The position numbers and the translations under genes are program-made. Positions 36,367 to 57,955 of a DNA stretch of 64,000 bases are shown in pieces. The notes under the pieces were generated by a model. That model was given only the letters and a program-made list of their open reading frames with translations, had not been told where the DNA came from and did no database searches. Each line of letters begins with the position of its first letter. Position 1 is the stretch's first letter. Source of the stretch: Clostridiales bacterium (GTDB lineage: Bacteria; Bacillota; Clostridia; Christensenellales; Aristaeellaceae); NCBI GenBank assembly GCA_012520375.1, contig JAAYOH010000037.1, forward strand, positions 52,413 to 116,412, read 5' to 3'.

Positions 36367-36369
36367 GAC

Positions 36370-39300: not shown

Positions 39301-39335
39301 CAAAAACGCCCCGAACGCAAAACGGCGTTCGGGGC
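39301..39335 (-). terminator. intrinsic terminator of the GATase-like gene
   Basis: 11-bp perfect stem gccccgaacgc/gcgttcggggc with a 6-nt loop, followed on the minus strand by GTTTTTG. Confidence 0.6.
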
Positions 39336-39343
39336 TTGCGGTT

Positions 39344-40096
39344 TTACGTACCGATGAGCCAGTTCGCCAGATTGCCCCAAAGCCGGGTGTAGCCCGGCCA
39401 TGTGCAAAAATCCACCGGCGCCCAATGCGGCGCGCAGTCTGTCGCAAAGGCGCAGGTACGGCCTTTCCCGTATGTGCCCAAGACGATCAATGGATCGCCG
39501 TTGACTGTCGCCACCACTTCACTGCCCTCTTTGGGGAGCAGAAGATTATAGCCCAGCAGCTTTGGCCACGTGTCCGGTACGCCTTCGAGGACAGGATGTG
39601 CGCGATCGGCCACGGAGGGCGCGATGCCGTCGCTCTCCTCCATGCGGTCATCGCCTTCCAGCAGGGTTACAGGCAAGATCTCCTCAACCGGCGTACGTTT
39701 GTAGGCGCCGCGCCCCTGAAGACCCATGAAGGATAGATAACCGCCGATCATCGCAAAGGCGCCGCCCTCGCGGACGTATTCCCTCAACAGCTTCAGTTTG
39801 TTCGGCGTCGGATTCAGGCGAATGAACACATTCATCGGCAGGTTCATGGTATTGGCGCCGACGTCGCTGAACATGACGATGTCGTACTGGGCAAGCGCTT
39901 CCACGCTCTGAGGGAAATCTCTCTCCACCAAGTGGGAAGGGATATGGACAAATTCATAATCATTTGCCACCAGTGCCGCGCGAATGTACTCTGTTGCTTC
40001 CTCGTAGTAATCGAAGGTAAAGGTGTCATACCCCTTGGCTTCTGTGGTGTGTACATGCCAACTCTCGCCGACGAACAGGATTTTTTGCTTCTTCAT
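39344..40096 (-). CDS. class-I glutamine-amidotransferase-like protein (DUF1355/ThuA-like)
   Basis: Start ATG 40096 after GGAAGGAG (MKKQKILFVGESW...). Pattern: YDIVMFSDVGANT ... REYVREGGAFAMIGGYLSF. Confidence 0.55.
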   Translation of the reverse strand: MKKQKILFVGESWHVHTTEAKGYDTFTFDYYEEATEYIRAALVANDYEFVHIPSHLVERDFPQSVEALAQYDIVMFSDVGANTMNLPMNVFIRLNPTPNKLKLLREYVREGGAFAMIGGYLSFMGLQGRGAYKRTPVEEILPVTLLEGDDRMEESDGIAPSVADRAHPVLEGVPDTWPKLLGYNLLLPKEGSEVVATVNGDPLIVLGTYGKGRTCAFATDCAPHWAPVDFCTWPGYTRLWGNLANWLIGT

Positions 40097-40755
40097 GCTA
40101 TCTCTCCTTCCATTTCCGATGAAAACAAATCCGGAGGCATTCTGCTCCGATGGACCGATCGATTCAGCGCGCCGCATCCGCTGAATCGGGACGGATAAAG
40201 TATAGCAGATATTGCCGGGACATGCAATTCTTGATCGATGGCTGGTCCGAACAAATATGTCCGATATGGTTTGTGCGGATAGCACATTTACAGAAGCGGA
40301 AAGGGGATGCTATAATAATGTAATCGTCCGGTCGGGAGATCCCGGTCGTCCGTTGGGGGTGTTCTATGGGCTGGCCAGCGACATCCTCAGCACGCACGCG
40401 GTGAGACGACGGGGCGACTATGCGGTTGTTCCGATCCAGGGTTTGGTGGACAATGTGGCGCCGGGGACAGAATGATGCCGTGTGATGCCATCCTTTTTTG
40501 AAAAACATGTGCAGGAGCACGGCATGTGCATCCCGGATGGATCGGGGGTGAAAGACCTCCCGGTATCCGGCGGCGCAGTTCGAGGCGCAGGGTTATGCGG
40601 TTCGACGGGCTGGCAATATCCCCGGCTTTCCGGCGGATTCGGACGCGGGGCGGCCCGGTCGCCAAGTTGTGATCCTGCCGGAAATGGATTGGCTGATTGA
40701 TGACGACGGAATGGTGCCGGTGAACGATAGCAACAGAACATAGGAGGTTATGGGA

Positions 40756-42144
40756 ATGAGAAGTGCGCAGGACATTACGTTGAAAAGTGTATCCCTTCCC
40801 GAATTTGGTCTGCCGGGGTCGCTGCCGGAACTGTCGGACGCCGTCTATCGCGGCAGATTCGAAAAGACATTGGACATGATGCGCAAAGAGAAGCTGGATT
40901 GTCTGCTTGTGTATGGAGACCGCGAACACTACGCGAACTTTGAGTACCTTTCCGGTTTTGACCTTCGATTTGAGGAAGGATTGTTGGTGCTTTCCGCGGC
41001 GGGCGAAGCCTGTTATATCCTTGGCACCGAATGCCTTCCCCTGGCTGCGACAACCCGTATCCCCGCGCGGGCGGAACTGTATCAGGGGTTTTCGCTGCCC
41101 AGCCAGCCCATCGACATGCTGCGCCCCCTTTCTGACATCCTTGAAAGCTGTGGACTGAAAAAGGGATGCCGTACGGGCGTTGTTGGCTGGAAACTGATGG
41201 CGCCGCGCTGGGCGGGGCGCGACGCGTTCGATGTGCCTTCCTTCATCGTTCGGGCGGCTGAGAAGACGGTCGGCGCGGAAAATCTTCTGAACGTCACGGA
41301 TTTCTTTATTCACCCAGATTACGGTCTGCGCGTGCTGAACACTGCCGACGACATCGCCTATTTTGAGTACGGCGCTGCGTGGGCCTCCATCGGACTGATC
41401 GACATGCTGGACGGGCTGAAGACAGGTTTGAGCGAGTTGGAGGCCTCCCGCATGATGAGGATCGGCGCGATGACGGAAAACTCCCATCCGCTTACCGTAG
41501 CGGGCGAAGGCAATGACGCGGGCATGGTCTATCCCAGCAATCGCAAACTGGAATTGGGCGGGCGCTTTAACTGCAGCCTGGGCCTTCGGGGCGGCTTATC
41601 CTGTCGGACCGGTTATTTGGCCTACAGCGAGGCGGACCTGCCCGAGGATCGGCGCGATTATCTGGACGTACTGGCAAAACCATACTACGCAGCCGTGGTG
41701 ACCTGGTATGAAAGCATGCGTATCGGCACGAATTGCGGCGATGTGTATGACCGGATCGAGGCTGTGCTGCCCAAGGCGCAATACCATTGGCAGTTGAATA
41801 CGGGCCATTATATTGCCAACGAGGAATGGCTATCCTCGCCGTTTGAAACCGGCTCGCCGGTCGATATTCGCAGCGGCATGTGCTTGCAGATGGATTTTAT
41901 CCCGGGCATCGACGGATACGCAGGCGCGAACTGCGAGGACGGCGTGGCCATCGCCGACGAAACCCTTCGCGCCGAGATCCAAGCGCGTTTCCCGGAGGTG
42001 TGGGCGCGCATGGTAAAGAGACGCCGGTTTATGACGGACGTGCTGAACATCCGCCTGCCCGATGAAGTGCTTCCCCTGTCCAATCTCGCGGCGCTCTACC
42101 GCCCCTACATGCTCAACAAAGACATGGCGCTGGCGGTCCGCTGA
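40756..42144 (+). CDS. M24-family (creatinase/prolidase fold) protein
   Basis: Creatinase_N-like N-terminus (MMRKEKLDCLLVYGDREHYANFEYLSGF) and a pita-bread-like C-terminal half. ATGs at 40750 and 40756 follow TAGGAGG; the second has better spacing. Metal ligands were not verified. Confidence 0.55.
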   Translation: MRSAQDITLKSVSLPEFGLPGSLPELSDAVYRGRFEKTLDMMRKEKLDCLLVYGDREHYANFEYLSGFDLRFEEGLLVLSAAGEACYILGTECLPLAATTRIPARAELYQGFSLPSQPIDMLRPLSDILESCGLKKGCRTGVVGWKLMAPRWAGRDAFDVPSFIVRAAEKTVGAENLLNVTDFFIHPDYGLRVLNTADDIAYFEYGAAWASIGLIDMLDGLKTGLSELEASRMMRIGAMTENSHPLTVAGEGNDAGMVYPSNRKLELGGRFNCSLGLRGGLSCRTGYLAYSEADLPEDRRDYLDVLAKPYYAAVVTWYESMRIGTNCGDVYDRIEAVLPKAQYHWQLNTGHYIANEEWLSSPFETGSPVDIRSGMCLQMDFIPGIDGYAGANCEDGVAIADETLRAEIQARFPEVWARMVKRRRFMTDVLNIRLPDEVLPLSNLAALYRPYMLNKDMALAVR

Positions 42145-43679: not shown

Positions 43680-44663
43680 ATGTACGACATCACCGCATTG
43701 GGCGAGAGCCTGATCGACTTCACCCCTTCCGGGGTGAACGACATGGGCATTCAGCTGTACGGCTGCAATCCGGGGGGCGCTCCCGCCAACTTCCTGGCCA
43801 TGAACGCCAAACTGGGGGGCAGGGTGGCCTTCATCGGCAAGGTGGGGGACGACGCCTTCGGCAGCTTCCTGGAGAAGACCATGGTGGAGGGCGGCATCGA
43901 CGTGAAGGGGCTGCGCAAGTCCAAAGAGGTGCCCACCACACTGGCCTTCGTACAGCTCAGCGACACCGGGGACCGGACTTTCAGCTTTTACCGCAAGCCC
44001 GGGGCGGACATCATGCTGACCCGGGAAGAGGTGGATACCGGGATCGTGGAGAACACCCGGGTCTTCCACTTCGGCACCCTGTCCATGACCGACGAGCCCA
44101 GCCGCAGCGCCACCTTCTATGCGGTGGACCTGGCCAAAAAGGCGGGGGCGCTGATCAGCTACGACCCCAATTACCGGCCCGCCCTGTGGGACAGCCCAGA
44201 AGACGCCATGGCGATGATGCAAAAAGGGGTCCCCCTGGCGGACATCATCAAGGTGTCGGACGAGGAGATGACCCTGATGACCGGGGAGACCGGGGCAGAG
44301 GCCGGCGCCCGGAAACTGCTGGACCAGGGCGCGGCGCTGGTGCTGGTGACCGGGGGCGAAAAGGGCGCTTTTTACATGAACCATGTGTGCTGCGGCGCGC
44401 TGCCCGCCTACGACGTGAAGGTGGTGGATACCACGGGCTCCGGGGACGCCTTCCTGGGCGCCCTCATGTACCGGCTGAAAGGATTGGACCGGGACGCCAT
44501 CGCGCACCTGCCGGAAGGGACCCTGCGGGACGCGGTGCTGTTCGGCAACGCCGCCGGCGGGCTCACCGCCACGGCCCGGGGCGCCATCCCCGCCATGCCC
44601 GATGAAGCCGGGATCCTGGCCTGTATGCGGGAAATGCCCCTGCATAAAGCGACCCTGGCTTAG
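43680..44663 (+). CDS. PfkB-family carbohydrate kinase (fructokinase-like)
   Basis: Start ATG 43680. Pattern: GESLIDF...GGAPAN ... DTTGSGDAF. An extended -10 TGGTATAAT lies at 43625-43633. Confidence 0.8.
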   Translation: MYDITALGESLIDFTPSGVNDMGIQLYGCNPGGAPANFLAMNAKLGGRVAFIGKVGDDAFGSFLEKTMVEGGIDVKGLRKSKEVPTTLAFVQLSDTGDRTFSFYRKPGADIMLTREEVDTGIVENTRVFHFGTLSMTDEPSRSATFYAVDLAKKAGALISYDPNYRPALWDSPEDAMAMMQKGVPLADIIKVSDEEMTLMTGETGAEAGARKLLDQGAALVLVTGGEKGAFYMNHVCCGALPAYDVKVVDTTGSGDAFLGALMYRLKGLDRDAIAHLPEGTLRDAVLFGNAAGGLTATARGAIPAMPDEAGILACMREMPLHKATLA

Positions 44664-46765
44664 GCGTCGGGCCTCTCTTTTTCCGCCACCAGCCGGGGGC
44701 CATCCAGGTACAACTTGATCCCGTCCAGAGAGAGCTGCTCGCCGCCGAGCAGCTTTTTCATGTGCTGGATGGTGAGATTGGGGCCGCCATGGCGCTTCAG
44801 GGCGTCCCGCCAGATGGTGAACTTGCAGGACTCCCGCCATCGGGTGCAGCCGAAGGCCTTCTGGTTGGCGGTGACATTGCCCTCGCCGCACAGGGGACAG
44901 GGGACACCCAGGTCGCTGTTTCCGGACTTCCTGGGACCGCCTTTCCCCTTGCGCAGGTCGGGCTCGAATTGTACCGTCCCGTCCGCCTGGATGGCGGCCT
45001 CCACCAGGAAGGCGCTGAAGCGGCGGATGCTGTCCATGAAACGCTCCGAGCGCTGGGCCAGGGCAGCGGGGTCGGATTCCGAGGCCATCTGGGTCAGGGC
45101 GCGCTCCCATCGGCCCGTGGTCTCTGCCGAAGCCAGCTGGGGAGGCGTCACCTGGGTGAGGCGGATGCCCTTCTCCGTGGCCCGGAGGGTTTTGCCGGAG
45201 CGCTTCACGTATTCCACCTTGATGAGTCGCTCGATGATGGCGGCCCGGGTGGCGGGCGTGCCCAGCCCGCTGGCCTTCATGCTCTCCCGAAGCTCTTCGT
45301 CCTCGATGAGGCGGCCTGCGTGCTCCATCAGGCCCAGCAGGGAGGCGTCGGTATGGGGGGAAGGGGGCTTGGTCTTGCAGGCTTTGGAGGAAACCTTCTG
45401 CACGGCGCGGGTATCCCCTTCTTTCAGCTGGGGCAGAGGCTGCTGCTCTTTGTCCTCCGGCTTGGCGGAGGGGTACAGGGCGCGCCAGCCCGGGACCAGG
45501 GGTGTCTGGCCCATGGTCTTGAACAGATGCTGCTCTACCCGGGTGAAGATCTGGGTGGACTGGTATTCATAGTCCGGGTACAGGACGGCTACCAGCCGCC
45601 GGGCCACCATGTCGAACACACGGGCTTCCTGCGCGGTGAGCCGGGAGAGGCTGCCGTACTGGCCCGTGGGCACGATGGCGTGGTGGTCGGACACCTTGGC
45701 GTCGTTGTACACCCGTCCGGTGACCGGCGGCTTTGGCAATAGAGGCGCGGCAAAACCTCCCCAGGGCTCCGGCAGGCTGCCCAGGGTCTTTGCCACTTTC
45801 GGGATCATGTCCCTTGTGAGGTATCGGCTGTCGGTGCGGGGATAGGTGATGAGCTTGTGCTTTTCATACAGGGCCTGGGCGATCTCCAGGGTCCGGGCGG
45901 CGGACAGGCCCATCAGGCGGTTGGCCTCCCGCTGCAGGGCGGTGAGGTCGAAGAGCTGGGGCGGGGGCGTGCGCTTTTTTTCGCTGATCAACTGCTCCAC
46001 GGCGCCGGTCTTTCCCTTCACCTGGCGCACCACTTCCCTGGCTTTGTCCTGGTCCGGGCAGCGGGTCTCTTTGGTCTCCGGGTGCACCCACAGGCCCTCG
46101 TAGTCCCCGAAGTCCGCCCGGATCTCGTAGTAGGTCTGAGGCACGAAATCCCGGATCTCCAGGTCCCGCTGCACGATCAGGTGCAGGGTGGGGGTCTGGA
46201 CCCGCCCCATGCTTAAAAGGGCGTCGTATTTCAGGGAAAAGGCGCGGCTGGCGTTCATGCCTACCAGCCAGTCCGCTTCGGCGCGGCAGCGGGCCGAGGT
46301 ATACAGGGCGTCGTAGGCCTCCGAAGGTTTCAAACCGGCGAAACCTTCCCGGATGGCGGCGTCGGTCATGGAGGAGATCCACAGCCGGTCTACCGGCTTG
46401 CGGCAGCCCGCCTGCAGGTAGATGAAACGGAAGATCAGCTCCCCTTCCCGCCCGCTGTCGGTGGCGCAGATGATCCGGTCCACCTCCGGGTCCAGCATCA
46501 GCTTTTTCACCGCGCCGTACTGCTTGCGGGTCTTGGGCAGTACCTTGGTGGGCAGGGTTTCGGGCAGGATGGGCAGGGTGGCAAAGTCCCATTTTTTGTA
46601 GCGGGGGTCCACTTCCGCAGGGTCGCACAGGCCCACCAGATGGCCCAGGGCCCAGGTCACATGGTAATCCTTGCCGGAGAGGAAGCCATCCCCTTTGACG
46701 CTGCAGCCTAGGACCCGGGCAATGTCCCGGGCGACCGAAGGTTTTTCCGCGACGACCAGGATCAT
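44660..46765 (-). CDS. topB: DNA topoisomerase III
   Basis: Start ATG 46765 (MILVVAEKPSVARDIA...), overlapping the upstream gene stop (ATGA). TOPRIM and type IA core domains, with a C-terminal zinc-ribbon CPLCG...C..W..C. Confidence 0.9.
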   Translation of the reverse strand: MILVVAEKPSVARDIARVLGCSVKGDGFLSGKDYHVTWALGHLVGLCDPAEVDPRYKKWDFATLPILPETLPTKVLPKTRKQYGAVKKLMLDPEVDRIICATDSGREGELIFRFIYLQAGCRKPVDRLWISSMTDAAIREGFAGLKPSEAYDALYTSARCRAEADWLVGMNASRAFSLKYDALLSMGRVQTPTLHLIVQRDLEIRDFVPQTYYEIRADFGDYEGLWVHPETKETRCPDQDKAREVVRQVKGKTGAVEQLISEKKRTPPPQLFDLTALQREANRLMGLSAARTLEIAQALYEKHKLITYPRTDSRYLTRDMIPKVAKTLGSLPEPWGGFAAPLLPKPPVTGRVYNDAKVSDHHAIVPTGQYGSLSRLTAQEARVFDMVARRLVAVLYPDYEYQSTQIFTRVEQHLFKTMGQTPLVPGWRALYPSAKPEDKEQQPLPQLKEGDTRAVQKVSSKACKTKPPSPHTDASLLGLMEHAGRLIEDEELRESMKASGLGTPATRAAIIERLIKVEYVKRSGKTLRATEKGIRLTQVTPPQLASAETTGRWERALTQMASESDPAALAQRSERFMDSIRRFSAFLVEAAIQADGTVQFEPDLRKGKGGPRKSGNSDLGVPCPLCGEGNVTANQKAFGCTRWRESCKFTIWRDALKRHGGPNLTIQHMKKLLGGEQLSLDGIKLYLDGPRLVAEKERPDA

Positions 46766-47280
46766 GCGGGTCTCACGGCGGCGTTCAACGCCCTGCCCAG
46801 CACGTAGTATTCCACCCACAGGCTGCGCTCCGTACCGGTGTGGGCCCGGGTGAGCAGGGTGGCGCTGACGATGGTCTTTCCAAAGGGGGGAATGGTCTGG
46901 GGATCGCCCTGCACCAGCACCACGTCTCCGGAAACAGGGGCCAGGGTCAATATGGCCCACTCCGCCGGGAGGGGGTTGACTCCCTGCAGCTGGACCGTAT
47001 AGGTGACAAAACTGTAGTTTTCTGCGGAAACGTCATCCGGCACACTGAACTGGTTGGAGGCGAAATCCCCGTTGTTCAGCGCTTCCATGACGCTTTCGAA
47101 CAGCTCCGGGCGCAGGGCGGCGTTCTCTTCCTCTATGGAAACAAGGGTAGCCCCGAGCTGGGCGCTGATGTACACATAGGCGAAGGCCGCCACGGCCAGG
47201 ATGGTGATGAATACGATGATCTTGCCGGATCTTCCCACGGGAAAGCCCCCCTTAAACAAATGGCGTACTCCATCCATCAT
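46762..47280 (-). CDS. hypothetical membrane-anchored protein
   Basis: One N-terminal TM helix (IIVFITILAVAAFAYVYI). Translationally coupled to topB. No recognisable family. Confidence 0.45.
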   Translation of the reverse strand: MMDGVRHLFKGGFPVGRSGKIIVFITILAVAAFAYVYISAQLGATLVSIEEENAALRPELFESVMEALNNGDFASNQFSVPDDVSAENYSFVTYTVQLQGVNPLPAEWAILTLAPVSGDVVLVQGDPQTIPPFGKTIVSATLLTRAHTGTERSLWVEYYVLGRALNAAVRPA

Positions 47281-47362
47281 AGCACCCCCGGCCGCCCCTG
47301 TCCAGCAAAAACGGGAAAAACCTCCGGGCCCGGACACATTTCTTGGCCGGGCCCGGAGGTGT

Positions 47363-48775
47363 TCAGGCTTTTTTTGCCAGTTCCTGTTCCAGCAGGGCCC
47401 GGATCCGGGCGGGGCTTCCGTTGCCCTTCAGGCTGCGCATACAGATGCCGAACAGGGCTTCCAGGGCCTTGGTTTTGCCGGACAGGTAGCTTTGTACCGC
47501 CGAAGGATCCTCCGCGATGGCCGCCTGGACCGCCGCCAGGATGGCCGATTCGTCGGACTGGGCAAAGAGGGCGTGGGCCTTGCAGTAGCTCTCGGGGTCT
47601 ATGTCCCCTTCAAAGAGCCGGGCCAGCACGGTCCTTCCGGAGGCCCGGGTCAGGTCCCCCGATTCCACCGCCTTGATGATCCAGGCCAGTTTTTCCGGGT
47701 CGATGTCCGGGAGGGATCCCGTTTTGCGGGCGTGGCCCAGGCATTCGGTGAGGAGCCAGCCAGCCGTTGCCTTGGGGGAGGCGCCCCGGGCGATCACCCC
47801 GTCGAAGAGGGCGGACAGGGCCCGGTCGGAAGCCAGGACGGAGGCGGAATCGGGGGCGATGCCCAGGTCCACATAGTGGGCGCTCTTCCCGTCGACGGAA
47901 TCCTGCATCCCCGCCCGGATCCGATCGATCCAGGCCTCGTCGATGAGGATGGGCATCAGGTTGGGGTCGGGGAAGTAGCGGTAGTCCGCGGCGGTCTCCT
48001 TGCTGCGCATGGGGAAGGAGCGGCGCTTGATGGGGTCCCAGCGCCGGGTCTCCTGGATCAGCATCTCGGTGTGCCGCAGGATGGCGTCCATGTGGCGCAC
48101 CTTCTCGAACTCGATGACGTCCCGGATCTCGGTGAAGGAGCTCATGTTCTTGATTTCCGAGCGCACGCCGAAACCTTCGGAGCCCTCGGGGCGCACGGAG
48201 ATGTTCACGTCGCAGCGCATGGCGCCCTCCTCGCACTCGGACACCCCGGCAAAGCGCAGGTTGTCTTTCACCCATTCCAGGTATTCGACGACCTGGGCGG
48301 AGGAACGGAAGTCGGGTCGGCTTACGATCTCGATCAGGGGGACGCCGGCGCGGTTGTAGTCCACCAGGGTGCTGCCCGTGGCTTCGTCGTGGATCAGCTT
48401 GCCCGCGTCTTCCTCCAGATGGATCTGTTTGATGCCGATGGTCCGGTCTTTGATCTCCACCTGGCCGTCCACGCAGATGGGGTTGAACCATTGGGTGATC
48501 TGGTAAGCGCCGGGCAGGTCGGGGTAAAAGTAACTCTTCCGGTCGAAGGTGGTGTACCGGTTGATCTTGCAATTCAGGATCAGCCCGGCTTTTATGGCAA
48601 GCTCGATGGCCTCCCGATTGGCCACGGGCAGCATGCCGGGCATGCCGCTGCAGGCGGGGCATACGCAGTCGTTGGGGGCCTGGGGGCTGGCATGGCCGCC
48701 GCAGGAACAGAACAGCTTGGACCGGGTGGACAGCTCCACATGGGTTTCAAGGCCGATGACCACTTCGTATTTCAC
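47363..48775 (-). CDS. gatB: Asp-tRNA(Asn)/Glu-tRNA(Gln) amidotransferase subunit B
   Basis: 470 aa. MKYEVVIGLETHVELST.SKLFC.C is the typical GatB N-terminus, and a YqeY-like tail is present. Confidence 0.95.
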   Translation of the reverse strand: MKYEVVIGLETHVELSTRSKLFCSCGGHASPQAPNDCVCPACSGMPGMLPVANREAIELAIKAGLILNCKINRYTTFDRKSYFYPDLPGAYQITQWFNPICVDGQVEIKDRTIGIKQIHLEEDAGKLIHDEATGSTLVDYNRAGVPLIEIVSRPDFRSSAQVVEYLEWVKDNLRFAGVSECEEGAMRCDVNISVRPEGSEGFGVRSEIKNMSSFTEIRDVIEFEKVRHMDAILRHTEMLIQETRRWDPIKRRSFPMRSKETAADYRYFPDPNLMPILIDEAWIDRIRAGMQDSVDGKSAHYVDLGIAPDSASVLASDRALSALFDGVIARGASPKATAGWLLTECLGHARKTGSLPDIDPEKLAWIIKAVESGDLTRASGRTVLARLFEGDIDPESYCKAHALFAQSDESAILAAVQAAIAEDPSAVQSYLSGKTKALEALFGICMRSLKGNGSPARIRALLEQELAKKA

Positions 48776-48778: not shown

Positions 48779-49978
48779 TTATTCCTCCCCTTTCTCCAGG
48801 GTCCGGGCGATCTTCAGCAGGGTCTCCTCCCCGTGATGGGCCGCCATGAACTGTACGCCCCCGGTGACCATGGCGGGGATGCCGGTCAGGGAGGCGGGGG
48901 CGGTGAAACGGCTTTCCCCGAAGGCCCTGGCAAAGCTCTCCGTCGGGGCGCAGGGAGCGGGGGCGAAGGTGCTGATGGCGGGGCACAGCAGGGCGTCGTA
49001 CCGGGCGAAGAGCCGGGCGAGTTCTTCGGCGATCACCCGGCGCACCCTGAGGGCGCGGTCGTAGCAGGCCTCGTATTTTTGCTTGGACAACACTTCGGAG
49101 CCGTACAGGATGACCGCTTTGGCGTTGAAGCCCAGGCCCTCACTGCGGCTCTTATCGTACAGGTCTTCGATGTCCCTGTATTCCCGGGCCCGGCGCCCGT
49201 ACTTGACCCCGTCGAAGCGGCCCAGGTTGCTGCAGCTCTCGGCGCACATCAGGATCTGCCAGGCGGTCTGGGCCTGGCCCGTCCAGTCCGCTTCGATGGT
49301 TTCCAGGGCGGCGCCCAGGTTTTCCAGGGCGGCTGAGATTTCTTCTATCCGGGCTTGGACCGCGTCCTCCGCGCCCTCCAGCAGGGGCGCGATCCGGGCG
49401 ACCTTAAGCCCTTGAACGCCGCCTTCGGGATCATAGCTGTAACGTACTTGGGGGAGGCTGGTGCCGTCCTTTTCGTCGTGGCCCGCGATGAGGGAGAGGA
49501 TGCGGGCGGCTTCCCGGGCGTCCCGGGCGGTGACCGTCACCGTTTCCCCGGAGGAGGCCGTAGAGATGACGCCCCGGCGGGACACCGCGCCGTAGGTGGG
49601 CTTGATGAGATCCACCCCCGCCACCGCGGCGGCCCGGCGGGGCGTACCATTCGCGTCCACGTTCAGGGCGGCTTTCACCGAGCCTTCTGCCACCAGCTGG
49701 GCGGAGGCGCTCGCCAGGTGTCCGTCTTGGAGCAGCGGCCCGAAAAAGGAACTTTCGCCCAGGAGATCCAGGCCGAATTCCCCCACATGGCACTTGCCCG
49801 AGACCTTTTCCCCCGCCTGCTCCAGCCGGGTCACGGCTTCGGCGCTGAAGAGGGGCAGGAAACCTTCCAGTATGCGGGAACCCGCAGTCGCGGGAGAACC
49901 CTGGACCTGGATGGTGTCATCCACCGCGATGGTGCCCTGAGGATCCATTTTGTTGATATAATATCCCATCATTTCCAC
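48779..49978 (-). CDS. GatA-like amidase-signature protein, shortened and with substituted catalytic residues
   Basis: 399 aa versus about 485 for typical GatA. Collinear with GatA by eye (KPTYGAVSRRG, LGRFDG.KYG). The VKDN Lys position reads VDD, GGSSGGS reads GHLASAS, and DTGGSIR reads DANGTPR. Confidence 0.75.
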   Translation of the reverse strand: MEMMGYYINKMDPQGTIAVDDTIQVQGSPATAGSRILEGFLPLFSAEAVTRLEQAGEKVSGKCHVGEFGLDLLGESSFFGPLLQDGHLASASAQLVAEGSVKAALNVDANGTPRRAAAVAGVDLIKPTYGAVSRRGVISTASSGETVTVTARDAREAARILSLIAGHDEKDGTSLPQVRYSYDPEGGVQGLKVARIAPLLEGAEDAVQARIEEISAALENLGAALETIEADWTGQAQTAWQILMCAESCSNLGRFDGVKYGRRAREYRDIEDLYDKSRSEGLGFNAKAVILYGSEVLSKQKYEACYDRALRVRRVIAEELARLFARYDALLCPAISTFAPAPCAPTESFARAFGESRFTAPASLTGIPAMVTGGVQFMAAHHGEETLLKIARTLEKGEE

Positions 49979-49979: not shown

Positions 49980-52058
49980 TCACTTCACAACTCGGGGGAC
50001 CTGCCAGCTGTCCCCGGTGCGCTGGGGCGCGCCTTGAAGCAGCGCCTCCCGGGCAAAGGGCTGGCTCCGCTGATCCGCCCGCAGGATATTGGTCATGGGG
50101 AGCACGTGGATCATGGGCTCTATACCCCCCGTATCCACCCTGCTGAAGGCTTCTTCCCGCAGGGACATGGCCTCGAAGATCCGGTCCATGGCGGCGCGCT
50201 CCTCTTCGGTGAGGGTCAGGGCGTTGACCTCTTCCAGGCTGTCGAATTTGGCGGCTGCCTCTCGGGCGGCGGGCCGGGCTGCGCCGCCGCTGCCGGAACC
50301 GTATATGTCTCCCCCCTGGCCCCGGACGCTGATGTTGGCCTCGTACAGCTGCAATTCGGTGACCTCGCTGGGGGCGCCCAGCATCTGGTCCTGGGCGGTG
50401 CCGTCCAGGGGGAAGGCGATGACGTCCCGGATGGTCTCAGTGTCCGCCAGCAGCATCACGATGCGGTCTATCCCCGGCGCCATCCCGGCATGGGGGGGCG
50501 CCCCGAACTGGAAGGCGTTGTACAGGGCGCTGAAGCGGCGCTCCACCTCGTCTTCGCTGTACCCCGCGATCTCGAAGGCCTTTTTCATCACCTCGGGGCT
50601 GTGGTTGCGCACTGCGCCGGAGGCCAGCTCGATGCCGTTGCACACCAGGTCGTACTGGTAGGCGAAGATCTCGGTGGGGTCTTTGGTCAAAAGCGCCTCC
50701 ATCCCGCCCTGGGGCATGGAGAAAGGGTTGTGGGTGAACACGATCCGGTCGGTGCTTTCGTCCAATTCGTACATGGGGAAATCCACGATGAAGCAGAAGG
50801 CGAAGGCGTCCTTGTCGATGAGATCCAGCTCCTGGCCCAGCCAGGTGCGGATGATCCCGGCGTTGCGGTCCGCCACCCCGGGCAGGGGATCGCAGATGAA
50901 GAAGATGCTCTCTCCCTCCCGGATCCCGGTGCAGCGCACCATCTCCTCTTTCTGGGCCTGGGTCATGACTTTGGTGATGGGCTCCTCTTTAAAGACGCAG
51001 CCCTCGGCCTTCAGCAGGGTGACGTGGGCCAGGCCGGGCATGTTCACCTTTTGGGTGGCGAACGCCAGGGACTTGTCGAAAAACCAGCGCTCGCTCTTGC
51101 AGGGCGCCACGATGGCCCGCACCGGTTTGCCCGCGAAGGGGCGGAAGGGGATGCGCCGGAAGAGGTCGCTGACGTCGCAGATGACAAGGGGGTTGCGCAG
51201 GTCGGGCTTGTCCGTGCCGTAGCGGGCCATGGACTCGGCAAAGGGGATGCGCCGGTAGGGGGCCGGGGTCACGGGCTTGTCCGTGAAGCGGGCGAAGGTG
51301 CCGCCCACCACCTCTTCGCATACGGCGAGCACCTCTTCCTGGGTGGAAAAGGCCATCTCAAAGTCCAGCTGGTAAAACTCGCCGGGGGAGCGGTCCGCCC
51401 GGGCGTCCTCGTCCCGGAAACAGGGGGCGATCTGGAAATACCGGTCGAAACCCGACACCATGAGCAGCTGCTTGAACTGCTGGGGCGCCTGGGGCAGGGC
51501 GTAGAATTTGCCGGGATGTTTGCGGCTGGGCACCAGGAAATCCCGGGCGCCCTCCGGAGAGGAGGCGGTGAGGATGGGGGTCTGGATCTCCAGAAAACCC
51601 CGCTCCTCCATCAGGCGGCGCATGTGCCCGATGACCTTGGAGCGCAGCACGATGTTTTCGTGGAGGGCGGGATTGCGCAGGTCCAGAAAGCGGTGCTTCA
51701 GGCGGATGCCCTCGTTGGCGCCCCCGGACGCGATCTCAAAGGGGAGGTTCCGGGTGCAGGGGCCCAGCACCGTGAGGGCGTCGGCCTTCAGCTCTACCTT
51801 GCCGGTGCGGATTTTGGGGTTCACCGTGCTCTCATCCCGACGGGTCACTTCCCCCGACACCGATATCACGCTTTCCCTGCCCACGCCCTTCAGCAGGTCT
51901 TCGTCGTGGACCACCACCTGGGTCACGCCGGTCTCGTCCCGAAGGTCTGCAAACAGCACCCCTCCGTGGTCCCGGATCACGTCCACCCAGCCGGCCAGCA
52001 TCAGGTCCTGCCCGATGTGCTGCTCGCCGATCTCACCGCAACGATGCGTTCTGTACAT
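49980..52058 (-). CDS. aspS: aspartate-tRNA ligase fused to a C-terminal GatC domain
   Basis: 692 aa. It has a complete class IIb AspRS (OB fold, motifs 1-3, GAPSEV... end). A G/S/A linker follows, then about 88 aa with the GatC pattern (VDTGGIEPMIHVL...N.LR.D...APQ...W.VPRV). Confidence 0.9.
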   Translation of the reverse strand: MYRTHRCGEIGEQHIGQDLMLAGWVDVIRDHGGVLFADLRDETGVTQVVVHDEDLLKGVGRESVISVSGEVTRRDESTVNPKIRTGKVELKADALTVLGPCTRNLPFEIASGGANEGIRLKHRFLDLRNPALHENIVLRSKVIGHMRRLMEERGFLEIQTPILTASSPEGARDFLVPSRKHPGKFYALPQAPQQFKQLLMVSGFDRYFQIAPCFRDEDARADRSPGEFYQLDFEMAFSTQEEVLAVCEEVVGGTFARFTDKPVTPAPYRRIPFAESMARYGTDKPDLRNPLVICDVSDLFRRIPFRPFAGKPVRAIVAPCKSERWFFDKSLAFATQKVNMPGLAHVTLLKAEGCVFKEEPITKVMTQAQKEEMVRCTGIREGESIFFICDPLPGVADRNAGIIRTWLGQELDLIDKDAFAFCFIVDFPMYELDESTDRIVFTHNPFSMPQGGMEALLTKDPTEIFAYQYDLVCNGIELASGAVRNHSPEVMKKAFEIAGYSEDEVERRFSALYNAFQFGAPPHAGMAPGIDRIVMLLADTETIRDVIAFPLDGTAQDQMLGAPSEVTELQLYEANISVRGQGGDIYGSGSGGAARPAAREAAAKFDSLEEVNALTLTEEERAAMDRIFEAMSLREEAFSRVDTGGIEPMIHVLPMTNILRADQRSQPFAREALLQGAPQRTGDSWQVPRVVK

Positions 52059-52099: not shown

Positions 52100-52329
52100 C
52101 GATACAAAAAGTCCCGAGGAAATTTCCTCGGGACGAGTGCAAGACCCGCGGTGCCACCCGACTTGATGTGATGCCTCACATCCGCTCATTATTCTGCTAC
52201 CCATCGGACAAAGCGTTCCCGGGCTTACTACTCGCCTGAATGTGCTTCCAGTCGCGGCACATACTCCCTGGCAGGCTTTCCACGAAAGTCGAGTCTTCGT
52301 CCGCCGCAACGGGCATGAGCCCGTCTGTC
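52100..52329 (-). promoter_or_regulatory. T-box riboswitch leader of the aspS-gatC/gatA-like/gatB operon
   Basis: On the minus strand the T-box sequence AAGTCGGGTGGCACCGCGGG lies at 52141-52164. The terminator GTCCCGAGGAAATTTCCTCGGGAC plus TTTTT lies at 52104-52134. Stem I carries an AGGGAG bulge and an AGTA element. The candidate specifier AAC is at 52215-52217. Confidence 0.8.
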
Positions 52330-52335: not shown

Positions 52336-52363
52336 ATTATACACAGATAATCCCGTTTGTCAA
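52336..52363 (-). promoter_or_regulatory. candidate promoter of the T-box leader
   Basis: On the minus strand: TTGACA (52358-52363), 16-nt spacer, TATAAT (52336-52341). Confidence 0.4.
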
Positions 52364-55101: not shown

Positions 55102-56088
55102 ATGAACATCAAGCGCGTATCTCTGTTTCTGGCTCTGGTCCTTTCCCTCTCCCTGATATTGTCCAGCGCGGCCTGCGCCGGAGACTGGGAGGGCATCACC
55201 CTGAAAATCAGCCACAACCTGTCCAGCACCGATATCCTGCAAACCTATCTGCAGCAGGCTGCCGACAAGATTTACGAACGCACGGAGGGAAAGGTACGGT
55301 TTGACATTTATCCCAACGGCGAACTATTGACCTATGCAGAAGCGGTGGAGGCCATCGCCAGCGACTCTCACGTGGTATACTACTGCGCCTTCTCCGACTG
55401 GAAGGACTATTATCCGGGCGCTGGCGCCTACTCTGCGGCCTATGTATTTGACTCTGTGGAACAATATCAAAAGTTCATGGAGACCGATTTCTTTGCCAAC
55501 ACCCTGGCAGAGCTGGACAAGCAGAACATCCACTGCCTGCAAGCCGGCTGGATCGGTGGCTTCCGTCACACCCTGACCAACATCCCCGTGAACACCATGG
55601 CCGACCTGAAGGGTTTGTCCATCCGCACCCCGGCCAATCCTGTGTGGGTCGACTGCTTTGAGTCTTTGGGCATGAGCGTTGTGGGCATGGCCTGGAGCGA
55701 AACATTGACTGCTGTATCACAGGGCAGCATCGACTCCGTGGAAGGCACCTATAGTACGGTTGTCAGCTACAACTGCTGGGACTATTTCAAATACCTCACC
55801 GAGACCAAGCACATCATCCAGGCCGAGTGCCTGTGGATGAGCGCCAATGTATGGAACTCCATTCCCGCTGCGTATCAGGCCATCATATCCGAAGAAATGA
55901 AGCCTGCCGTTCAGGGCTATGTGCAAGCCTCGGCTGATCTGGAGAGCCAGATGCGCCAGCAGGCTATTGATAACGGCATGGAAGTCAATCGGGAGATCGA
56001 CCTGAGCGAGTTCAAGGCCGCCGCCGGCAAATATGTGCTGCAGTATGACATCGGCCAGGAGATGCTGGATGTGCTGGCAGGCTTGTAA
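55102..56088 (+). CDS. TRAP transporter substrate-binding lipoprotein (DctP family)
   Basis: Lipobox LSSAAC and a DctP-like length and pattern. Followed by the two TRAP permease genes. Confidence 0.8.
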   Translation: MNIKRVSLFLALVLSLSLILSSAACAGDWEGITLKISHNLSSTDILQTYLQQAADKIYERTEGKVRFDIYPNGELLTYAEAVEAIASDSHVVYYCAFSDWKDYYPGAGAYSAAYVFDSVEQYQKFMETDFFANTLAELDKQNIHCLQAGWIGGFRHTLTNIPVNTMADLKGLSIRTPANPVWVDCFESLGMSVVGMAWSETLTAVSQGSIDSVEGTYSTVVSYNCWDYFKYLTETKHIIQAECLWMSANVWNSIPAAYQAIISEEMKPAVQGYVQASADLESQMRQQAIDNGMEVNREIDLSEFKAAAGKYVLQYDIGQEMLDVLAGL

Positions 56089-56176
56089 GGTCTGCTTTCC
56101 CGCCTAAAATTCCTGCCCATATCAACGCGGTGGGACGAGGGCATCTCGTCCCGCCGCTGTACAAAAGGGGATACGA

Positions 56177-56668
56177 ATGAAAAAAAAGTTCCGTTTTGAG
56201 GATATTGAAGATTTTATCTGCAATCTGTCCCTGGTGCTGATGCTGTTGGCTGTTCTGGCAAACGTGCTGAGCAACCTGATGATCAACAAACGCTTTGCCT
56301 ATCTGGAGGAGATGTCCACTGGCTGCTACATGTTCGGCGTATATGCCGGCGTCGGCCTTCTCTACAAACGCAGGGAGCTCACGGTGGTCAATTTTGTCAT
56401 AGACAGGTTTCCACCCCGCCTCCGCTACGTCACGGATTTGTTTGGGTGCCTTTATCTGCTCTTCTACGGCGCCATGATGACCTACAACGGCGTGCTGCTT
56501 TGCATGAACAGCACCATCAAGCGACTTCCTGCCATGCAGATCTCCTACATGTGGCTGGATCTGTGCATCGTGTTTGGCTTCTCCACGCTGACCATCCGGG
56601 TGCTGCTGGACATCGTTCGCAAACTCGCCTCGGCAAAAGAGGTGTTTGCCCAAAAGGAGGCTGCATAA
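56177..56668 (+). CDS. TRAP transporter small permease (DctQ family)
   Basis: 163 aa with four TM helices. Its stop abuts the large permease start. Confidence 0.75.
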   Translation: MKKKFRFEDIEDFICNLSLVLMLLAVLANVLSNLMINKRFAYLEEMSTGCYMFGVYAGVGLLYKRRELTVVNFVIDRFPPRLRYVTDLFGCLYLLFYGAMMTYNGVLLCMNSTIKRLPAMQISYMWLDLCIVFGFSTLTIRVLLDIVRKLASAKEVFAQKEAA

Positions 56669-57955
56669 ATGGGTCCCTACATTCCGATGATCCTCACCTT
56701 TATTCTGCTGATCCTGGGCATTCCTGTAGCCGTTAGTTTTTTCAGCGGAGCCATTATCTATTTTACCTTTTTTTGTCGGGATTTGACTATTACCACCCTG
56801 ATTCAGAAAATGCTGACCAGCGGCATGTCTTTCACTTTTCTGGCCGTTCCCTTCTTTGTTACAGCCGGCGTGGTGATGAACTATGCGGGCATTTCCGACC
56901 GCGTCATGGGCTTTTGCAACAATCTGGTAGGCCACAAGCGCGGCGGCCTTGCCTATGTAAACGTTCTTCTGTCCACCCTGAACGGCGGCATTTGCGGCTC
57001 TGCTGGTGCAGACGCAGCCAACGACTGCAAAATCCTGGTGCCGCAGATGGTCAAACGGGGCTATTCTCCCGCCTTTTCCGCAGGCGTGTCCGCTGCTTCC
57101 GCGCTGATTAGCCCCATCATTCCCCCGGGCGCCGGTCTGATCCTCTACGCCAGCATGACCGGCACCTCCGTGGTCAAAATGTATTATGCCGGCTACATCC
57201 CGGGCATCCTGCTGTGCATCGGGATGTGCCTCACCGTGGCCATCATCGCCCGCGTCCGCCACTTCACCCCCGACCGGGAAAGCCGCGCTACCCTGAAGGA
57301 AATTTTGCAGAGCCTCAAAGAGAGCTGGCTTTCCCTCATGATGCCGCTTGTGCTGATCGTGGGCATCCGCACCGGTTGGTTTACCCCTACCGAAGGCGGA
57401 TTGGTGCTGATCTCCATGTGCGCCCTGATCGGCGCTTTCGCCTACAAAGAAATCAAGCCCTGCCACATCAAGCCCATCCTGGTGGAGTCCTTCTCCTCCA
57501 TGGCCAACGTGTCTTTGATCATCGTCTCCGCCGTCATCTTTGGCACCTATCTGTCCTGGGAACGCATTCCCCAGAATTTGGCTGCCTATCTGATATCCAT
57601 CACCGACAGCCCGGGCATGTTCTTGCTGCTGGCCAACCTTCTGGTTTTTGTGATGGGCATGTTTCTGGATGGCACCGCCGTTTTGATGATTGCCACGCCC
57701 CTGCTCTTTCCGGCTGCGCAGTCCTACGGCATTGACCCCATTCAGTTTGGCATCATCATGATCGTCAATATGTCAGTGGGCGGCCTCACACCTCCCTTTG
57801 GCGGCGTTATGTACCTGTGCTGCCACATGTGTAACGTGGAGATCCCGGATTTCCTGAAGCATACCTGGCCCTTCATCGTGTGCCTGCTGATCGTGCTGGT
57901 ACTGGTCACTTGCTTCCCGATCATCAGTACGTTGGGTCCCGATTTGCTATACTAA
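56669..57955 (+). CDS. TRAP transporter large permease (DctM family)
   Basis: 428 aa, polytopic, with a typical DctM pattern (LAVPFFV.AG..M...GIS.R). Confidence 0.9.
   Translation: MGPYIPMILTFILLILGIPVAVSFFSGAIIYFTFFCRDLTITTLIQKMLTSGMSFTFLAVPFFVTAGVVMNYAGISDRVMGFCNNLVGHKRGGLAYVNVLLSTLNGGICGSAGADAANDCKILVPQMVKRGYSPAFSAGVSAASALISPIIPPGAGLILYASMTGTSVVKMYYAGYIPGILLCIGMCLTVAIIARVRHFTPDRESRATLKEILQSLKESWLSLMMPLVLIVGIRTGWFTPTEGGLVLISMCALIGAFAYKEIKPCHIKPILVESFSSMANVSLIIVSAVIFGTYLSWERIPQNLAAYLISITDSPGMFLLLANLLVFVMGMFLDGTAVLMIATPLLFPAAQSYGIDPIQFGIIMIVNMSVGGLTPPFGGVMYLCCHMCNVEIPDFLKHTWPFIVCLLIVLVLVTCFPIISTLGPDLLY

Follow-up and report, generated by a model that had tools for sequence, protein, structure and literature searches.

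The comparative analysis of this locus points to an operon that senses tRNA(Asn) and encodes a tethered Asn-transamidosome without a glutaminase of its own, which would probably take the amide from free ammonia; we give this reading a probability of about 0.6. The operon lies on the minus strand of the window, i.e., the whole stretch of 64,000 nucleotides that was analysed, and is composed of a promoter, a T-box(Asn) leader, an aspS-gatC fusion, gatA', gatB and a terminator, in that order. The bigger surprise is not the fusion itself but the dead GatA partner (GatA'), a truncated GatA-like subunit without the glutaminase site; the AspRS-GatC architecture is not new, as NCBIfam already names such a family. 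The features of the operon, all on the minus strand, are as follows.

52336..52363, minus: sigma-70-like promoter (TTGACA, 16 nt, TATAAT), a consensus match only, with agreement at 12/12 consensus positions
52100..52329, minus: T-box leader, a candidate attenuator that senses uncharged tRNA
about 52299-52209, minus: Stem I of the T-box leader, supported by covariation
52217-52215, minus: predicted specifier AAC (Asn), followed by a purine
52159-52147, minus: T-box sequence GGGUGGCACCGCG
52137-52130, minus: predicted 3' strand of the antiterminator, which overlaps the 5' arm of the terminator
52134-52111, minus: predicted leader terminator hairpin, with a U-run at 52110-52106
50313..52058, minus: AspRS portion of the fusion (residues 1 to about 582), composed of an anticodon-binding OB-fold domain, a class II catalytic core and a weakly matched GAD insertion
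50244..50312, minus: Gly/Ser/Ala-rich linker, residues about 583-605
49983..50243, minus: GatC domain, residues about 606-692, with the stop codon TGA at 49982-49980
48779..49972, minus: GatA', 397 aa from ATG 49972 or 399 aa from GTG 49978
47363..48775, minus: GatB, the kinase/transamidase subunit, 470 aa and apparently intact
47315..47360, minus: intrinsic terminator at the end of the operon, with a G+C-rich stem of 14 bp and then UUUUU

The original prediction of an AspRS with a GatC tail fused in frame was confirmed; the tail is a full-length GatC domain, and the 692-aa product (49980..52058, minus strand) ends in the C-terminal sequence that had been quoted. The AspRS part, with 718.6 bits against NF001750 (cut-off 443, residues 1-579) and 578.6 bits against TIGR00459 (cut-off 373.85), passed both equivalog cut-offs and can be assigned to the bacterial-type aspartate--tRNA ligases, albeit with a weak GAD insertion. 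Pfam placed tRNA_anti-codon at residues 21-98 and tRNA-synt_2 at 116-551, while GAD, which is matched in most homologues, gave a weak match here at 310-391 (E=0.034). The AspRS models stop matching at about residue 579-582, and the expected GatC family was found beyond this point: Pfam PF02686 covered residues 616-685 (34.8 bits, E=1.9e-8, gathering score 23) over profile positions 1-64 of 66, and the tail taken alone reached 36.9 bits. The TIGR00135 gatC model matched residues 606-691 over profile positions 7-92 of 93, with 41.6 bits in the whole protein and 46.1 bits for the tail alone, both just under the cut-off of 47.1. Moreover, genes of the gatA and gatB type adjoin the domain, as is expected of a GatC. 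Its identity was 40-58% to the tails of related fusions and 38-43% to the free-standing GatC of two related loci (L024 and L025). The linkers of the related fused proteins measure 24-38 residues, with an abundance of G, S, A, T, E and K and little conservation, as would suit a flexible tether. For the fusion as a whole, the AlphaFold model, which was built with 24 close homologues, was unusable (pLDDT 42).

The fusion is shared by many relatives. All 120 of the best homologues (72-99% identity, 699-702 aa) had both the AspRS and the GatC Pfam domains, and the 25 loci that were recovered from different MAGs each had a single AspRS-GatC ORF without interruption, or a part of one that was cut off by the end of the contig. 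That the same fusion recurs across about 120 protein clusters as well as 25 independent genome loci, drawn from many assemblies, shows that it is not an assembly error, and the linkers of the fused proteins have diverged in sequence and length with a stop codon in none of them. The chance that a stop codon was lost or a frameshift introduced during sequencing or assembly, with aspS and gatC being truly separate, is thus negligible, and an artefact was rejected on these comparative data, even though some related operons (L024, L025, L080-L083, L086 and L087) do have aspS and gatC as two genes. In some relatives, AspRS and GatC are separate beside the same dead GatA, and one locus (L087) has two AspRS genes side by side, the second of which has no T-box. 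A phmmer search with the GatC tail against 1.8 billion representatives gave 602 matches, the top ones being short free-standing GatC proteins or fragments; since the fused proteins presumably sit in AspRS clusters, this search was uninformative about the spread of the fusion.

The claim that no AspRS-GatC fusion had been characterised held only in part. Our literature search for the AspRS-GatC fusion, PRK12820 and dead or pseudo-GatA found nothing relevant, so no characterising paper came to light, but the architecture is already named in NCBIfam NF009460 (PRK12820) as 'bifunctional aspartyl-tRNA synthetase/aspartyl/glutamyl-tRNA amidotransferase subunit C'. The domain order is the same, a bacterial-type AspRS followed by a C-terminal GatC, and profile positions 26-720 of 723 align to residues 7-689 of the window protein. 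However, the window fusion reached only 438.7 bits against a cut-off of 1379, which is less than its score with the plain AspRS model (718.6), and two relatives scored similarly (432.6 bits for L003 and 460.1 bits for L008). With a score so far below the cut-off, the window fusion does not belong to that equivalog and represents the same architecture in a different lineage.

The gene downstream of the fusion had been taken for an ordinary gatA, which proved to be incorrect: its product is truncated at the N-terminus, and both the Ser-cisSer-Lys triad and the glutamine-binding residues are gone. GatA' matched the Pfam Amidase family with 168 bits, whereas it scored 239.3 bits against TIGR00132 gatA (cut-off 481.1), with only profile positions 63-462 matched, and thus falls outside that family. 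About 60 N-terminal residues are missing, and the former Lys motif is preceded by 12-17 residues (up to 29 where the start is possibly over-extended) compared to 75-80 in the canonical GatA. In GatA, the triad consists of Ser178, Ser154 and Lys79 (S. aureus numbering); Ser178 is the nucleophile, and GatC is needed by GatA for its folding and for GatB binding (PMC2330236). In the window protein, Asp stands in place of the Lys, Ala in place of the cis-Ser and Thr in place of the nucleophile Ser, and in the comparison with T. maritima GatA (3al0_A), IKDN reads VDDT, GGSSGGSA reads GHLASASA and DTGGSVR reads DANGTPR, so that the GGSS cis-Ser loop is absent. The glutamine-binding residues, whose roles were taken from the literature (PMC4027206), are lost as well: the positions of T. 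maritima R342/R343 carry Ala/Thr-type residues and that of D409 carries Ser or Asn. One further loop is lost alongside them. The active-site losses were found in 120/120 close homologues, in 27/27 loci and in 117-120 of the 120 members of a second sub-clade; the Lys to Asp replacement in particular was present in 120/120 homologues, 28/28 scanned sequences and 117/120 members of the second sub-clade. In all, the dead-GatA pattern covers at least 240 protein clusters. In the same scan, the K, GGSSGG and DTGGS of the canonical GatA were kept in 52/52 sequences.

Nevertheless, GatA' is not a pseudogene, as is evident from the high column conservation among divergent sequences: 33 GatA' sequences that are 55-59% identical to the window's protein had a mean column identity of 83% and more than 100 invariant columns. 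The GatA-specific motifs KPTYG..SRYG and NL.RFDGVKYG are retained. According to an AlphaFold model of moderate confidence (pLDDT 67.8, pTM 0.75), the protein would keep the GatA fold, the model being closest to the GatA chains of GatCAB structures (TM 0.69-0.76; best 2df4_A, 3kfu, 3h0l and 4wj3, 0.71-0.76). Having lost the triad and the Gly-rich loops as well as the Arg and Asp that bind glutamine, GatA' cannot work as a glutaminase, and the complex cannot therefore be a standard glutamine-dependent transamidosome.

The third gene encodes a GatB that belongs to both families that were compared, with 521.6 bits against NF004012 (cut-off 338) and 449.7 bits against TIGR00133 (cut-off 314.8); its Pfam domains GatB_N and GatB_Yqey scored 361.7 and 94.2 bits, respectively, and its differences from the GatB of canonical operons are mostly conservative. 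The predicted order of the fusion followed by gatA-like and gatB genes was borne out, as was the lack of a free-standing gatC at the locus. The start of the gatA-like gene, which had been placed 1 nt after the stop codon of the fusion, is possible there at GTG 49978, but ATG 49972 is likelier because of a GAGGTG ribosome-binding site; from that ATG the spacing to the fusion stop is 8 nt, and the stop of GatA' is followed after 3 nt by the gatB start. The closing terminator has a minimum free energy of -40.6 kcal/mol (z = -3.8 compared to shuffles). A tblastn search of the whole window revealed no further GatC, GatA, GatB or AspRS sequence, and no asnS, asnA/asnB or second gatA, gatB, gatC or aspS was found among its large ORFs. 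The U1-A72 pair of tRNA(Asn) is a recognition feature for GatB; the tRNA genes of the window are tRNA-Val and tRNA-Leu only.

The leader was brought to light by a promoter and terminator scan and a permissive Rfam scan. At the gathering threshold, the Rfam scans of the window and of ten loci gave no T-box; RF00230 matched the leader with 37.2 bits (E=6.5e-7), where the gathering score is 93. A T-box motif was located 5' of all 21 fused operons for which upstream sequence was available, and a TATAAT-like -10 box occupied the same relative place in most of the aligned leaders of the related loci. The sequence given in the feature list was present in 22/22 leaders, and the antiterminator helices share a GUCCC segment with the terminator hairpin and its U-run. 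Because the 3' strand of the antiterminator overlaps the 5' arm of the terminator, the two structures would be mutually exclusive. The AAC specifier was invariant in 21/21 aligned leaders; the 3' side of the specifier loop reads N-AAC-R, and the leader also has an AGAGA bulge and a conserved distal loop. A K-turn was not recognised in this leader sub-family. Compensatory changes occurred in 30 of the 46 pairs of the consensus structure (21 leaders), and 95.7% of the cells of the alignment were paired compared to 35-52% with slid partners, the observed values being reached in 0/500 shuffles. On this covariation, we regard the leader as a T-box that falls below the Rfam threshold. Asn-type specifiers also precede the canonical ND-AspRS-gatCAB operons and the unfused dead-GatA operons, which suggests that the dead-GatA operons are regulated like operons for Asn-tRNA(Asn) synthesis. 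The invariant AAC specifier lends independent support to the earlier proposal that the fused enzyme serves tRNA(Asn). Together with the shared operon with GatB and the second AspRS in L087, it hints indirectly that the AspRS may be non-discriminating and act on both tRNA(Asn) and tRNA(Asp).

In the proposed mechanism, uncharged tRNA(Asn) would pair with the leader at the AAC specifier and at the UGGC bulge and stabilise the antiterminator, which would turn the operon on. The fusion, GatA' and GatB would then assemble into an asparagine transamidosome with a covalent tether. GatC normally wraps around the interface of GatA and GatB, and since it is here the C-terminal domain of each AspRS monomer, each AspRS dimer should carry its own GatA'/GatB pair. 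The AspRS would load Asp onto tRNA(Asn), and GatB would phosphorylate the Asp side chain and then amidate it to yield Asn-tRNA(Asn), with GatA' kept as a scaffold or a piece of the channel. By elimination, the most likely amide donor is free ammonia or ammonium, in which gut and rumen habitats are rich. In GatFAB, 20 mM NH4Cl replaces glutamine as the donor, and NH4Cl-dependent transamidation rose when the cover over the GatA site was loosened (PMC4027206).

A different source of ammonia has to be weighed against this. An asparaginase-family (PF00710) protein could have replaced the GatA glutaminase, or could convert free Asn to Asp and NH3, which are both substrates of the machine, with GatA' as a docking or channel subunit. 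Of the first 31 dead-GatA loci, 10 have a divergent asparaginase-family gene with TGGT and HGTDT motifs in their flanks, compared to none of the 52 canonical-GatA loci of the same scan (Fisher p=1.8e-5 for the first 31 loci, phylogeny ignored); it lies 53-62 nt after gatB in six loci and upstream in four. Archaeal GatD belongs to the same family, and the PDB relatives of the neighbour include type I asparaginases as well as GatD. Its two closest metagenomic relatives also adjoin fused operons (L088 and L089). However, the gene is absent from the window and from the 10-kb flanks of four more dead-GatA contexts (L084-L087), which brings the count to 10/35 dead-GatA loci; its product is below the NCBIfam cut-offs for asparaginase and GatD and does not have the N-terminal domain of GatD. 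In the reverse test on 80 metagenomic relatives, two stood beside fused dead-GatA operons, one beside a canonical-GatA operon and one followed a gatB fragment, while most had no gat genes nearby. The relative upstream of the AspRS operon with the canonical GatA (L095) shows that the link is not specific to dead GatA, and the reverse test reduced a specific replacement to a lead. We consider such a replacement unlikely, although in some relatives the adjacent enzyme may add to the ammonia supply.

The conservation of GatA' could be explained in two further ways. The replaced motifs are strongly conserved in their new form, with Asp-Asp for Lys-Asp and D-x-N-G-x-P-R-R-A-A for D-T-G-G-S-I-R-Q-P-A; they are among the best-conserved parts of GatA', being invariant or nearly so in 120 + 120 clusters, whereas the former nucleophile position drifts among A, S, T and Y and is mostly Ala or Ser. 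Conservation of the former active-site region in a new form suggests a new function rather than an empty scaffold, and the remodelled pocket might serve in ligand binding or regulation, e.g., amino-acid sensing, tunnel gating or contact with AspRS or tRNA. This is quite unlikely in our estimation: no known binding motif was recognised in GatA', core packing after the loss of the triad can also explain the conservation, and the AlphaFold pLDDT is below 50 in exactly these segments (residues 20-43, 60-78 and 128-143). It is also conceivable that a canonical GatA or gatCAB elsewhere does the glutamine-dependent work, so that GatA' is a slot-filling paralogue, or that AsnRS is used and the operon is partly vestigial. 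For this genome, the search covered the 64-kb window, and a canonical gatA, asnS or asnA/asnB may lie elsewhere in the genome; redundant sets of AspRS and GatCAB are known in Clostridia, C. acetobutylicum having three AspRS and an extra GatCAB (PMC4206432), and L087 has its two adjoining AspRS genes. However, no second gat gene was found within the window, in every locus GatA' lies, with translational coupling, between the GatC fusion and GatB, it is conserved across family-level divergence (43-59% identity), the operon is under the same Asn T-box control as the canonical operons, and a vestigial gene would not retain more than 100 invariant columns. We therefore hold this to be very improbable and prefer the tethered, probably ammonia-fed transamidosome.

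The known Asn-transamidosomes share four modules with the window operon (AspRS, GatC, the GatA fold and GatB), and the pathway proposed here likewise yields Asn-tRNA(Asn) from Asp-tRNA(Asn). Their partners are, however, non-covalent and their GatA is an active glutaminase, whereas here GatC is covalently attached to AspRS and GatA' has lost its N-terminus, triad and glutamine pocket. The leaders of the canonical Lachnospiraceae operons are of the same type and carry G-AAC-A in their specifier loop, but these operons encode an archaeal-type ND-AspRS (the L037 ORF, NF003483, 574 bits) or a bacterial AspRS without the fusion (L042), and in addition a stand-alone GatC of 97 aa and a full-length GatA of the active type. 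Compared to theirs, the window leader is a shorter T-box variant that lacks Stem II and remains under the Rfam threshold. The T-box operon of C. acetobutylicum was reportedly described by Saad et al. in J Biol Chem in 2012 and, as the 'NT-box', in PNAS in 2013. In this ND-AspRS/gatCAB operon, aspS is reportedly joined to the gat genes behind a tRNA(Asn)-responsive T-box (cited in PMC4206432 and PMC4574755). The yeast mitochondrial GatFAB (PDB 4n0h, 4n0i; PMC4027206) also has a shortened GatA N-terminus (catalytic Lys at 52) and a remodelled small subunit. However, it keeps the active Ser-cisSer-Lys glutaminase, for which the triad and the Gln-binding Asp and Arg have been described (PMC4027206), and the N-terminal domain of GatF stabilises the GatA site and tethers no synthetase. 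Archaeal GatDE is a tRNA-dependent amidotransferase that obtains ammonia from the asparaginase-family GatD instead of an amidase-signature GatA, and the distant asparaginase-family gene beside about 30% of the dead-GatA operons resembles this arrangement. GatDE differs in having GatE in place of GatB and neither GatA nor GatC, and the neighbour differs from GatD in the ways that are given above.

According to the accepted view, the kinase/transamidase (GatB or GatE) must be coupled by a tunnel to a glutaminase (GatA or GatD) (PMC2330236). In the window locus and at least 240 related protein clusters, GatB and, as far as the model indicates, the GatA fold have been kept while the glutaminase chemistry has been discarded and the tRNA(Asn)-sensing control retained. 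It is feasible, at slightly less than even odds, that these genes define a widespread lineage of gut Clostridia in which AspRS-GatC, GatA' and GatB, switched on by uncharged tRNA(Asn), run on free or asparaginase-derived ammonia with GatA as a remodelled pseudo-enzyme. If so, this would be the first natural ammonia-dependent enzyme of the GatCAB type and a natural experiment on the non-catalytic contributions of GatA and the ammonia tunnel. An active complex would mean that the glutamine dependence of the pathway is dispensable in ammonia-rich habitats; it would offer a natural system for the structural role of GatA and the tunnel and could be regarded as a covalently tethered 'AsnRS in trans'. 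At NCBI, the GatA' proteins are named 'hypothetical protein' and the fusion 'aspartate--tRNA ligase', so metabolic reconstructions of these gut MAGs would mistakenly treat the indirect route to Asn-tRNA as missing or incomplete. The hosts of the gut MAGs with the related loci are goat, sheep, deer, yak, buffalo and human.

The C-terminal sequence quoted in the original prediction was recovered exactly on an open reading frame of the minus strand, and the domain scan of its product returned what had been expected, AspRS domains followed by a GatC domain.

49980-52058, minus strand: aspS-gatC fusion ORF, 692 aa
49982-49980, minus strand: fusion stop codon, followed by a GAGGTG ribosome-binding site and the ATG (49972) of the next gene

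NF001750 matched AspRS residues 1-579 (718.6 against a cut-off of 443), TIGR00459 scored 578.6 against 373.85 on the AspRS part (both NCBIfam), and Pfam recognised the OB-fold anticodon-binding domain and the class II core. The Pfam GatC domain (PF02686) covers residues 616-685 with 34.8 bits (gathering score 23). Because this match passes and the TIGR00135 gatC match, slightly below its cut-off (41.6-46.1 bits against 47.1), is nearly full-length (profile positions 7-92 of 93), the tail is a complete if somewhat divergent GatC domain. Both the AspRS and the GatC Pfam domains are present in all 120 of the best database homologues (699-702 aa, 72-99% identity); the closest comes from a Candidatus Excrementavichristensenella MAG and the remaining ones from MAGs of Clostridia, Oscillospiraceae (Ruminococcaceae) and Acutalibacteraceae. 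When one genome per species was scanned, 25 loci showed the AspRS-GatC ORF without interruption, or part of it where the contig ended, with the same two genes downstream. MAGs that have the operon include GCA_045541675.1, GCA_052833185.1 and GCA_054275365.1 and the assemblies to which JAFSFB01, SVPW01, SVOT01 and DUNU01 belong. The predicted fusion is thus borne out, as is the absence of a free-standing gatC, since a tblastn search of the 64-kb window detected no further GatC, GatA, GatB or AspRS sequence. Across the related loci, the linker varies from 24 to 38 residues, is rich in G, S, A, T, E and K, is hardly conserved and looks like a flexible tether; such diverged linkers rule out a shared sequencing error as the source of the fusion. 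The claim that the architecture was unknown was, however, overstated. NCBIfam NF009460 (PRK12820) already names a 'bifunctional aspartyl-tRNA synthetase/aspartyl/glutamyl-tRNA amidotransferase subunit C' and aligns with the fusion from end to end, but the score is far below the cut-off (438.7 bits against 1379; relatives 433-460 bits), so that the window's protein represents either an independent or a very divergent lineage with a domain order that was already known. No paper describing an AspRS-GatC fusion was found in the literature searched.

The most unexpected result at the locus was the GatA-like protein encoded between the fusion and gatB (GatA'), whose homologues are labelled 'hypothetical protein' at NCBI. 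This protein of 397 aa has a Pfam Amidase match, but on TIGR00132 it reached only 239 bits against a cut-off of 481, with the alignment starting at profile position 63. When it was aligned with Thermotoga maritima GatA (3al0_A), the catalytic Lys motif IKDN was replaced by VDDT, the cis-Ser loop GGSSGGSA by GHLASASA and the nucleophile motif DTGGSVR by DANGTPR. The Lys was changed to Asp in each of 120 close homologues, in which the cis-Ser has given way to Val, Ala or some other residue and the nucleophile position is occupied by Ala (85), Ser (19), Thr (9), Tyr (6) or Phe (1); 120 further clusters of a second sub-clade, which was reached from the related locus L025, showed the same pattern. 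The window's protein and all 27 short GatA' proteins of the genome scan share these losses, and only 12-29 residues precede the former Lys motif, whereas the 52 canonical GatA proteins from the same scan all retain K, GGSSGG and DTGGS and, bar a few truncated or over-extended ORFs, have 75-80 residues before the Lys motif. The residues that hold the carboxylate and amino groups of glutamine, the roles of which have been described (PMC4027206), are also replaced in GatA', and one loop is deleted. The GatA-specific motifs KPTYG..SRYG and NL.RFDGVKYG are kept, and the predicted fold most resembles that of GatA in solved structures of GatCAB and the transamidosome (TM 0.69-0.76). The downstream 'gatA' product is therefore predicted to be no glutaminase. 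Among 33 sequences that are 55-59% identical to the window's, the mean column identity was 83% and more than 100 columns were invariant, which indicates that the family is under strong purifying selection; a pocket that is remodelled and yet so strongly conserved hints at some function. GatB itself exceeded its equivalog cut-off (521.6 against 338), and most of the differences from the GatB of canonical operons are conservative.

The related loci fell into three arrangements. In one (L028-L079), an archaeal-type ND-AspRS (NF003483, 574 bits) or an unfused bacterial AspRS is accompanied by a 97-aa GatC, a full GatA and GatB. In another (L024, L025, L080-L083, L086 and L087), an unfused bacterial AspRS of 591 aa is followed by a GatC of 93-118 aa, the dead GatA' and GatB, while the fusion with dead GatA' and GatB is found in the window and at least 25 loci. 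Because the second arrangement pairs a dead GatA' with a separate GatC, it suggests that the glutaminase site was lost before the fusion occurred, and the Asp-Asp and N-G-x-x-R-R-A signatures common to all dead GatA' proteins suggest a single origin that predates the fusion. One locus with unfused genes, L087, has two bacterial-type AspRS copies in tandem, which are 52% identical to each other.

L087:5337-7112, plus strand: first AspRS, 591 aa, without a T-box, 49% identical to the window's AspRS
L087:7866-9641, plus strand: second AspRS, 591 aa, with a T-box, heading the GatC/GatA'/GatB operon, 62% identical to the window's

This pair is in keeping with the view that some genomes, at least, have the operon-type AspRS as a dedicated second enzyme.

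A T-box leader also precedes the fusion in the window, with the following elements.

52363-52336, minus strand: promoter with a perfect match to the -35/-10 consensus, upstream of the fusion
52217-52215, minus strand: specifier AAC, invariant in the leader alignment
52134-52106, minus strand: G+C-rich hairpin with a U-run, about 50 nt 5' of the fusion start codon

A permissive Rfam scan detected the 3' half of the T-box leader with 37.2 bits (E=6.5e-7), which falls short of the gathering score (93). The T-box sequence GGGUGGCACCGCG was present upstream of all 21 related fused operons that had upstream sequence, and the consensus of 21 aligned leaders comprises Stem I, Stem III, antiterminator and terminator, with compensatory changes at 30 of its 46 pairs. 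In this alignment 95.7% of the cells were paired compared with 35-52% in slid controls, and no shuffle attained the observed values. Immediately above the basal helix, the specifier loop has N-AAC-R on its 3' side; as AAC encodes asparagine, the leader should respond to uncharged tRNA(Asn), the G73-CCA end of which would pair with the UGGC bulge. The G-AAC-A element was also found in T-box leaders of the unfused dead-GatA operons and, in the same scan, of canonical ND-AspRS-gatC-gatA-gatB operons of Lachnospiraceae. With this leader upstream and a strong terminator 3' of gatB, the transcription unit consists of leader, aspS-gatC, gatA' and gatB. The Asn-type T-box leaders agree with the published T-box control of the C. 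acetobutylicum ND-AspRS/gatCAB operon, as cited from Saad et al. (2012, 2013) in PMC4206432 and PMC4574755. A small extra hairpin (ACGGGC-UCAU-GCCCGU; 52308-52325, minus strand) separates the predicted transcription start from Stem I; it is missing from the 20 related leaders and was mis-assigned to another stem in the Rfam alignment. In a related MAG (L013:3368-3501, minus strand), a cobalamin riboswitch (RF00174, 32.3 bits against a gathering score of 31.5) is located directly upstream of, and divergent from, the fused operon.

The original prediction of a tethered transamidosome component that serves tRNA(Asn) is a plausible one, to which the T-box lends support. GatC is required for GatA folding and for the association of GatA with GatB (PMC2330236); as a domain of AspRS, it should hence force a 1:1:1 assembly per AspRS monomer and give a permanent Asn-transamidosome. 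The feature of interest is the conserved glutaminase-dead GatA partner; the identity of the amide donor is the clear and testable question that it poses. As its residues indicate, GatA' cannot hydrolyse glutamine through amidase-signature chemistry, so the nitrogen must come from elsewhere, and free ammonia would be the simplest source. AdTs use NH4Cl in vitro, and a loosened cover over the GatA site of yeast GatFAB raised NH4Cl-dependent transamidation (PMC4027206); by analogy, the 60-residue N-terminal deletion and the lost glutamine pocket of GatA' could open the tunnel entrance. The organisms of the related loci are gut and rumen anaerobes. This habitat and a gene for glutamate dehydrogenase, an ammonia-assimilating enzyme, are weak circumstantial pointers to an ammonia-rich lifestyle.

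32279-33565, minus strand: glutamate dehydrogenase gene (ELFV_dehydrog and N-terminal domain)

A possible local source of Asp and NH3 is a divergent asparaginase-family protein (PF00710, 331-385 aa), in which the TGGT and HGTDT motifs are retained. Among its relatives of solved structure are type I asparaginases and archaeal GatD, but it scores below the NCBIfam cut-offs of both.

PF00710 genes at dead-GatA loci and, in the last line, beside fused operons from the metagenome reverse scan
L006:2444-3475, minus strand
L012:5316-6326, plus strand
L014:8657-9679, plus strand
L015:8654-9808, minus strand
L020:3445-4485, plus strand
L021:8653-9714, minus strand
L027:1268-2263, minus strand
L080:2456-3532, plus strand
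L081:2540-3535, plus strand
L083:8695-9714, plus strand
L088/L089:8001-9056, plus strand

The gene adjoined 10 of the first 31 dead-GatA loci and none of the 52 canonical ones (Fisher p = 1.8e-5, with phylogeny ignored); four more loci made this 10 of 35, or about 30% of these operons. Its position and orientation vary: in six loci it follows gatB by 53-62 nt, and in four of these it shares the strand. The window lacks the gene, as do four further dead-GatA contexts, and among 80 metagenomic relatives in the reverse scan two lay beside fused dead-GatA operons, one followed a gatB fragment where the GatA type is not visible and one (L095) adjoined a canonical-GatA aspS-gatCAB operon. The gene is therefore kept as a lead and not as an explanation.

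A 191-aa ORF (46762-47337, minus strand) lies immediately 3' of the gatB terminator and overlaps a topoisomerase III-like gene (44660-46960) in the start region of the latter. Its product is hydrophobic in an N-terminal segment and had no Pfam match, and a promoter-like site of its own is located at 47304-47276. Two ORFs with gene-like codon composition, of 464 aa (40750-42144, plus strand) and 353 aa (62568-63629, minus strand), had no Pfam match at E<=1e-6. On the plus strand, the window also encodes a 1021-aa protein with three lamin-tail domains, a chitobiase C-terminal domain and a CotH kinase domain (14053-17118), a 653-aa protein with Big_2 and caspase (Peptidase_C14) domains (22223-24184) and a TRAP transporter set of a DctP solute-binding protein, a 163-aa ORF (56177-56668) and a DctM large permease (55102-57955). 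Between 33565 and 36370, no ORF was called with confidence. G+C is 49-54% at 28000-40000 compared with 61-66% in most of the first 24 kb and the operon region, and several ORFs (24227-24880, 30014-32111 and 36370-38308) have a lower third-codon-position G+C; judging by composition, the 28000-40000 region may have been acquired horizontally.
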